From NCBI RefSeq assembly GCF_988242995.1, contig NZ_OZ547043.1: DNA of 64,000 nucleotides; one strand, written 5' to 3'. Shown here piece after piece: positions 24,835-24,954 of the stretch (position 1 is the first letter of the stretch; every line of letters starts with the position of its first letter). The translations under genes were made by a program, and so were the position numbers. The notes beneath the pieces were generated by a model. It ran no database searches. It saw only the letters and a program-made list of their open reading frames with translations, and had not been told where the DNA came from.

Positions 24835-24954
24835 GACAGAAACTCCACCGGTTGTTAAACGGACGCTTGTCGCATCAACATATTTTGCTTAATCCGGGAT
24901 TAAGCAAAATATGCGGAAACAGCATTCCCTTGCGGGAATGCTGCTGAGTACGCG

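Follow-up and report, generated by a model that had tools for sequence, protein, structure and literature searches.

The junction between sinI and the ratA-like gene raises the question of whether two adjacent palindromes in its spacer act in the DNA, as an operator for ratA, or in the RNA that is transcribed from it. We examined this junction in a stretch of 64,000 nucleotides (NCBI RefSeq assembly GCF_988242995.1, contig NZ_OZ547043.1), referred to hereafter as the window. The spacer has the length given in the first-pass annotation, 120 nt (24835-24954), and is read on the minus strand from the sinI stop at 24955 to the ratA ATG at 24834. That annotation had taken the palindrome next to sinI (H1) for a plausible terminator or attenuator and the one nearer to ratA (H2) for the promoter-proximal operator of a dimeric regulator, with an RNA processing hairpin as its fallback. 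The evidence presented below favors the fallback for H2. The pattern of conservation and change fits a pair of conserved RNA stem-loops under selection at the level of the mRNA, and argues against a dimeric operator. On balance we lean toward a two-hairpin RNA module carried by the sinH-sinI-ratA polycistronic transcript, in which H1 may serve as an attenuating terminator or 3'-end stabilizer and H2 as a processing or stability element. The elements of this putative module are as follows.

24918..24945, minus strand: H1, a GC-rich RNA hairpin and candidate weak intrinsic terminator or 3'-end stabilizer (inverted repeat, folding, covariation).
24914..24919, minus strand: linker UUUCCG; the H2 stem begins with the last C of its family consensus, UUUUCCGC (near-invariant columns 3-8 of the 26-sequence alignment).
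24879..24913, minus strand: H2, a perfect 17+1+17 palindrome and RNA hairpin with the core UUUGCUUA / UAAGCAAA (inverted repeat, folding, covariation, covariance model).
24873..24921, minus strand: the whole H2 module as modelled, that is the 5' flank, the hairpin and the 3' flank GUUGAUG (alignment A3 and covariance model R1).

Both palindromes exist as described earlier, with some corrections. The H1 arms (24920-24929 and 24934-24943) are 10 nt each and 100% complementary, enclose the loop GCAA on the gene strand, and were matched in none of 100 shuffles of the window. RNA folding lengthens the stem to 12 bp (24918-24945; -20.6 kcal/mol). H1 begins 9 nt past the sinI stop, and UUU followed by CCGC lies downstream of the stem. 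H2 (arms 24879-24895 and 24897-24913) is indeed a perfect palindrome, but its length is 35 nt rather than the 31 nt first reported, with 2 bp more on each side. The central G noted before is that of the plus strand and corresponds to a C on the gene strand. The center lies 62 nt upstream of the ratA ATG, in agreement with the earlier figure of ~60 nt. The isolated H2 module has a folding energy of -21.1 kcal/mol (z = -7.5), and the RNA of the whole spacer folds into both H1 and H2 (z = -5.9); none of 200 shuffles was as stable in either case. H2 is the longest perfect short-loop palindrome among the repeats listed for the 64-kb window, where arithmetic gives a chance expectation of ~4e-5 for a perfect 17-bp palindrome of this kind. 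Chance accounts for neither repeat.

Related junctions were collected through annotated E. coli records, exact-protein look-ups of SinI homologues and a profile scan of species-representative genomes. This yielded 26 distinct junctions from Escherichia (including enteropathogenic E. coli (EPEC) E2348/69, E. albertii and E. whittamii), Salmonella enterica, S. bongori, several Citrobacter, Pseudocitrobacter and Superficieibacter, across which the identity of SinI to that of the window falls to ~40%. H1 and H2 were present in the same order between sinI and a ratA-like gene in all 26.

In the alignment of these 26 sequences (A3), the H2 core UUUGCUUA ... UAAGCAAA is invariant or nearly so, as are the inverted half-sites TTTGCTTA / TAAGCAAA, while stem positions outside and inside the core vary. 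The variation preserves pairing. In the 16-pair helix 93.8% of the cells are standard pairs, and 7 of the 16 pairs show double-sided changes (39 cells). No shuffle out of 500 reached either the covariation score or the percentage of paired cells of H2, and pairing dropped to 34-48% when the 3' partners were slid by 1-3 columns. RNAalifold recovered the helix independently and added G8·U61 and C6-G63 across a C·U mismatch by way of the conserved flanks UUCCGC and GUUGA. By double-sided changes, shuffles, slid controls and RNAalifold alike, H2 shows the compensatory pairs of a conserved cis-acting RNA structure, and its module is the best-conserved non-coding block of the region. The covariation counts were made without correction for phylogeny on sequences that are related; the slid-partner control and the G·U bias described next are independent of relatedness.

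The changes that H2 tolerates depend on the strand. Cells that are not Watson-Crick pairs on the gene strand comprise 45 G·U versus 4 A·C, distributed over at least 6 pair columns, an asymmetry that would be meaningless in duplex DNA. A covariance model built from A3 scored 48-71 bits on the gene strand and at most 44 bits on the opposite strand, the gene strand being 20-40 bits higher. The gap between the two halves of the core is 9 nt in most junctions, 8 nt in three of them (loci L015, L026 and L023), 11 nt in two (L020 and L035) and 26 nt in E. albertii NBRC 107761 (L022, 7356-7421), which has 17 extra nt in the H2 loop. In this last lineage a G-C pair of the core itself has been replaced by A-U in a compensatory manner (TTTACTTA/TAAGTAAA). 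Taken together, the strand bias, the variable spacing and the compensatory core change indicate that H2 is an RNA hairpin and not a DNA operator.

The sequence of H1 is freely variable among the relatives (for example CAGCATTCCC/GGGAATGCTG, ATACCACTCCC/GGGAGTGGTAT and GACCGCTTCC/GGGAGCGGT(T)), with pairing retained throughout. Over 11 pairs in 24 loci we counted 251 Watson-Crick pairs, 10 G·U, no A·C and 3 others, and the eighth pair from the loop flips between G-C (10 loci) and C-G (14 loci). The loops are almost always 4 nt long and often belong to the stable GCAA, UUCG, GGAA or GAAG types. In the relatives examined, H1 lies 8-15 nt after the sinI stop. A stable GC-rich stem with a loop of 3-8 nt just past the sinI stop on the transcribed strand, the first mark of an intrinsic terminator, is present in the window and likewise in 29 loci. 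The second mark, a U-tract of ~7-9 nt directly after the stem, is not: most relatives have 3-4 U followed by CCGC, and a consensus scan (at least 5 T in 8) called no terminator in the spacer. Of the GC-rich hairpin and U-rich tract proposed earlier, therefore, the hairpin stands and the tract is reduced to UUU before CCGC. The suggestion that H1 is a plausible terminator or attenuator holds as far as sequence comparison can carry it, given the compensatory change and the conserved position after the sinI stop, with the reservation that the U-tract is short. Overall, the 3' end of sinI carries in H1 what behaves as a conserved RNA hairpin, built like a weak terminator.

Two natural insertions bear on whether H1 and H2 form a single unit. 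In Escherichia sp. MOD1-EC7003 (L024, 10651-10780), an insert of 47 nt separates H1 from the UUCCGC flank; the linker remains with H2, which still adjoins ratA. In Escherichia sp. E1V33 (L014, 4552-4810), ~200 nt resembling repetitive extragenic palindromes (REP) or bacterial interspersed mosaic elements (BIME) (GCCTGATGCGC...TTATCAGGCCTACA, GTAGGTCGGATAAGGC...) lie within the 3' arm of H1, part of which is duplicated on both sides of the insertion, and H2 and ratA are intact downstream. Since both insertions leave H2 at ratA, the two hairpins appear to be separable. The linker UUUCCG holds the short U-tract of H1 and is also predicted to pair with the 3' flank GUUGA, which would extend the H2 helix. 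The helix measures 17 perfect bp in the window, ~19-21 bp if the flank pairs (G·U, C-G, U-A) form, 13+2+3 bp in Salmonella and 18+4 bp in Leminorella; an RNase III substrate would be expected to offer roughly two helical turns of double-stranded RNA.

The Leminorella helix has a sequence of its own. Leminorella grimontii has sinI and a RatA-like gene, and the covariance model detected no H2 there. Between the two genes (L025, 10958-11060) we found a canonical terminator, with six U in nine bases after the stem, and a second hairpin of other sequence (UUUUGAAAAGU.../...AUUUUUCAAAG) without the enterobacterial core. The layout is thus the same two-hairpin one, and the U-run of the terminator again pairs with a downstream GAAG, suggesting that structure, not sequence, was the ancestral requirement. 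H1 is also present after the more distant sinI homologues of Leminorella, Lelliottia and Buttiauxella. No RatA-like gene was detectable after sinI in Lelliottia or in one of the two Buttiauxella loci, and the other Buttiauxella locus (L030) gave a weak, ~30%-identical match to part of the RatA N-terminus only. Lelliottia and both Buttiauxella loci carry H1 only. Together with Leminorella, these loci suggest that the second long helix accompanies clearly RatA-like genes, and that at larger distances the structure persists and the sequence does not.

H2 is confined to this junction. Of 5426 complete E. coli genomes, 946, those that have the island, contain the 35-nt palindrome, each at a single site and nowhere else. 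In 575 kb of related loci the covariance model recognized a single copy per locus and none upstream of other genes, including the shdA-like autotransporter gene that follows ratA in Salmonella. A search with the full palindrome found no copies on true plasmids or in phages; two full-length "plasmid" matches in PLSDB (NZ_CP141089.1 and NZ_CP134663.1) are 4.9 Mb long, i.e. mislabelled chromosomes. An exact-pattern scan of metagenomes gave 63 matches, of which ~45 adjoin sinI or ratA with typical flanks; the other ~18 are AT-rich, do not pass the model and are due to chance. The half-site search that had been proposed as a means of finding further copies of the operator was run on the window and gave matches at chance level. 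Rfam 15 contained no family at gathering score, and its only hits were chance matches to eukaryotic microRNA models (17 bits, E above 1). In the searchable literature we found neither a description of hairpins in the sinI-ratA spacer nor mapped transcript ends there.

sinH, sinI and ratA have been treated as one operon analogous to zirTSU and proposed to form a translocator-plus-substrate system like it (PMC4943183, PMC6714894, PMC12928451). In the model that we favor, H1 most likely terminates part of the transcripts and/or protects the 3' end of the sinH-sinI message, and the ratA message would as a result be scarcer than that of sinH-sinI. Transcripts that read through would bear H2 in the leader of ratA, 30-55 nt before the start codon. 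There H2 and its flanks (UUCCGC with GUUGA, one C·U mismatch) are predicted to form a helix of ~19-21 bp, which may act as a processing or stability determinant of the read-through message. In view of the length of the helix and of a loop that is not conserved, the double-strand-specific RNase III is the obvious candidate, and cleavage by it would be the likeliest mechanism; alternatively, the hairpin may shield a processed ratA message at its 5' end. By either mechanism the output of RatA would be set independently of SinH and SinI. The model fits the view of a single operon whose products, namely translocator, accessory or substrate protein, and giant substrate, probably have to be made in unequal amounts (PMC4943183, PMC6714894, PMC12928451). 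The proposal that ratA expression is decoupled from sinH-sinI has to be weakened: attenuation is plausible, as is separate control after transcription, but the spacer gives no sign of an independent ratA promoter.

Each part of this model resembles known systems, and each departs from them. Intra-operon terminators and attenuating hairpins, such as the stem-loop that follows papA in the pap pilus operon, set unequal expression in adhesin and other operons. H1 is like these in that it is a GC-rich, tetraloop-capped hairpin shortly past a stop codon and followed by U residues, in a co-oriented operon with no downstream promoter; it is unlike them in the small number of U residues and in its failure in a standard consensus scan. 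Hairpins in leaders or between cistrons that are processed by RNase III include those of the rpsO-pnp leader, phage T7 R1.1 and the conserved proU hairpin. With them H2 shares a near-perfect helix of ~17-21 bp, a small unconserved loop, a leader or intercistronic position and a structure conserved across genera, whereas the invariance of its 8-bp core goes beyond any sequence requirement known for RNase III. Stem-loops at the 5' end stabilize messages in the case of the ompA leader and of the papA message after processing of papBA. Like these, H2 is a stable hairpin that lies upstream of a ribosome-binding site without occluding it. A role of this kind requires a 5' end immediately upstream of H2, generated by a promoter or by cleavage, and no promoter was seen.

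Four considerations weigh against the model. Relatedness alone can beat the shuffle control when related sequences are counted uncorrected. The U-tract of H1, at 3-4 U, fails the terminator-scan criteria. The extension of the H2 helix by its flanks rests on near-invariant pairs, without covariation support. Finally, the invariance of the 8-bp core in ~26 sequences of Enterobacteriaceae exceeds a purely structural need and hints at sequence-specific recognition. This invariance is left unexplained by a processing or stability element, which keeps alive an alternative in which a specific protein or small RNA recognizes H2.

In this alternative, which we regard as a tentative one, H2 is bound by an RNA-binding regulator with sequence specificity, or targeted by a small RNA through base pairing, and the translation, stability or Rho-dependent polarity of ratA is controlled in this way. 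The hairpin would present or mask UUUGCUUA/UAAGCAAA and would be a regulated RNA element, not a constitutive processing site. Such recognition would account for 16 core positions that are invariant or nearly so next to stem positions that change freely, and for the conservation of the single-stranded flanks UUCCGC and GUUGA. Against this, no candidate factor is known, perfect A-form helices are poorly read by proteins, and the loop, the usual site of recognition, is not conserved. Leminorella retains the architecture with another stem sequence, and nothing like a regulon, in the form of a second copy, was found in the 5426 E. coli genomes, the plasmids, the phages or the metagenomes. It is conceivable, if doubtful at present, that H2 and its flanks are an undescribed family-specific regulatory RNA motif whose UUUGCUUA/UAAGCAAA helix is read by a dedicated protein or small RNA, gating RatA separately from the presumed translocator SinH. 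Gating would work, for example, through controlled RNase III cleavage or the suppression of polarity in the 8-kb gene.

Far less probable is the operator of the first-pass annotation, a duplex-DNA site at which a dimeric transcription factor would control a ratA promoter. H2 does resemble the palindromic operators of dimeric helix-turn-helix regulators: the dyad is perfect in the window strain, and two conserved 8-bp half-sites flank a variable center. In contrast to such operators, the half-site spacing is not fixed (8, 9, 11 or 26 nt), the G·U bias is specific to the gene strand, positions both outside and between the half-sites covary so as to retain pairing, and the core pair itself has changed in a compensatory manner in one lineage. 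The site is also present in a single copy per genome. A promoter for it to control is equally hard to find. A consensus scan detected no sigma-70-like promoter in the spacer, its single match lying inside ratA, and no conserved -10 was seen by eye in any species at 16-19 nt from TTGCTT (5' arm) or TTGAAA/TTGATG (3' flank) taken as the -35. A sigma-54 promoter in the spacer was considered and rejected, the geometry of GG-N10-GC before TTGC being unsuitable; the sigma-54 site published for Salmonella sinH lies within the gene and has no relation to the spacer.

We likewise give little credence to the idea that H1 and H2 together are a cis-acting RNA for processive antitermination, like the put RNAs of phage HK022, that would modify RNA polymerase so as to carry it through the 8-kb ratA gene without early termination, whether Rho-dependent or linked to H-NS. 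In favor of such an RNA, a pair of adjacent conserved stem-loops lies within ~75 nt directly upstream of a very long gene, in a layout kept in Leminorella. A compact two-stem RNA should not tolerate the inserts of 47 nt and ~200 nt that separate H1 from H2 in L024 and L014, however, H1 resembles a terminator and not an antiterminator, and there is no similarity to any Rfam family. That the palindromes are functionless remnants of a repeated or mobile element (REP/BIME, miniature inverted-repeat transposable element or recombination site) is very improbable, for despite an intergenic hairpin past a stop codon and REP-like palindromes nearby (in the ratA-xseA spacer and as the H1 insertion in L014), the module lacks the REP consensus, is locus-specific and present in one copy in each of 946 E. 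coli genomes and nowhere else, and holds an orthologous position across genera under purifying selection with compensatory change.

Several other candidates were tried and rejected. A leader peptide or small open reading frame (ORF) through H2 is at odds with differences in loop length that cannot be divided by three and with the lack of conservation of the 8-codon ORF of the window. The Nus-factor boxA, the RfaH ops element, a CsrA GGA loop, the R boxes of integron attC sites and an IHF site had either no conserved match or one that would be buried in a helix. Sequestration of the ratA Shine-Dalgarno sequence by UUCCGC would involve 6 bp including wobbles in E. coli and 4 bp in Salmonella, with no covariation seen.

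The window is E. coli DNA, and the genes that surround the spacer were identified with the help of strain 042, which matches it at 100% identity (401 bases compared). In the RefSeq annotation of the identical 042 locus, the order on the minus strand is der, a zinc-ribbon gene, sinH, sinI and the gene for a 2680-aa RatA-like adhesin, followed by the convergent xseA. The features of the operon are these.

25987..28164, minus strand: sinH, which opens the operon and encodes an intimin-like inverse autotransporter (RefSeq annotation of the identical E. coli 042 locus).
24955..25932, minus strand: sinI, SinI-family autotransporter-associated protein, 325 aa (ORF list and RefSeq annotation).
24843..24849, minus strand: GGUGGAG, Shine-Dalgarno-like sequence of ratA, 8 nt before the ATG and not sequestered by H2.
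16792..24834, minus strand: ratA-like gene for a giant adhesin of 2680 aa that has a signal peptide and BIg21/InvE_AD repeats.

In the ORF list sinH spans 25987-28194 from an upstream TTG start. The 2680-aa product is labelled "adhesion domain-containing protein" by RefSeq and is RatA-like on the basis of its BIg21/InvE_AD repeats. The assignments of sinH, sinI and ratA made from the sequence of the window were thus confirmed, RefSeq giving sinH, a SinI-family protein and a BIg21/InvE_AD adhesion-domain protein. Purine-rich motifs like that of the window occupy the equivalent place before ratA in all relatives, where the Shine-Dalgarno sequence lies 30-55 nt downstream of H2, past a purine-rich segment of variable length and outside the helix.

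Some observations on individual loci and on the remainder of the operon may be recorded here. The EPEC E2348/69 derivative (L002) carries a divergent island in which SinI is ~40% identical to that of the window, the RatA-like product is only 760 aa long, and the zinc-ribbon gene stands after ratA rather than before sinH; both hairpins are kept. A contig filed under a "Collinsella sp." metagenome-assembled genome (L009; JAIJJM010000381.1, 3119 nt) has a sinI ~98% identical to that of E. coli and an identical spacer, and is almost certainly a mis-binned E. coli contig. By tblastn, the C-terminal ~115 residues of SinH match residues 210-325 of SinI at 31-37% identity in the window and in seven other loci (L006, L007, L010-L012, L022 and L023), which agrees with the likeness of SinI to the Ig-like passenger domains of SinH noted in the literature (PMC4943183).

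The 54-nt sinH-sinI spacer (25933-25986, minus strand) contains a small hairpin, GAUUGGC-GUAAG-GCCAGUC, directly past the sinH stop (spacer fold z = -3.0), with a counterpart (GATCGGC...GCCGATC) in E. albertii and Pseudocitrobacter. With H1, this places a hairpin after the stop codon at each gene junction of the operon. Between the stops of ratA and the convergent xseA (16733-16791) lies a long, GC-rich, imperfect palindrome with a REP-like sequence of the GCCGGATGCG type (-38.5 kcal/mol, z = -4.0), probably a REP/BIME that serves as a bidirectional end of both genes. Upstream of sinH (28165-28375, minus strand), ~200 nt are very AT-rich, a composition that would be typical of horizontally acquired, H-NS-silenced promoter regions, and no obvious terminator follows the zinc-ribbon gene in this segment.

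The case of H2 indicates that comparative sequence suffices to place a palindrome with the appearance of an operator at the RNA level, through the bias toward G·U on one strand, the compensatory changes and the variable length of the loop. Terminator-like hairpins within operons and leader helices processed by RNases are already known; the sinI-ratA module itself is absent from Rfam, and no description of it was found. It is compact and a candidate for a cis-regulatory RNA motif that would be new. The sinH-sinI-ratA adhesin genes are associated with virulence and occur in extraintestinal pathogenic E. coli and in the Salmonella CS54 island, and the module at its sinI-ratA junction offers a testable handle on the balance of translocator, accessory protein and giant substrate.
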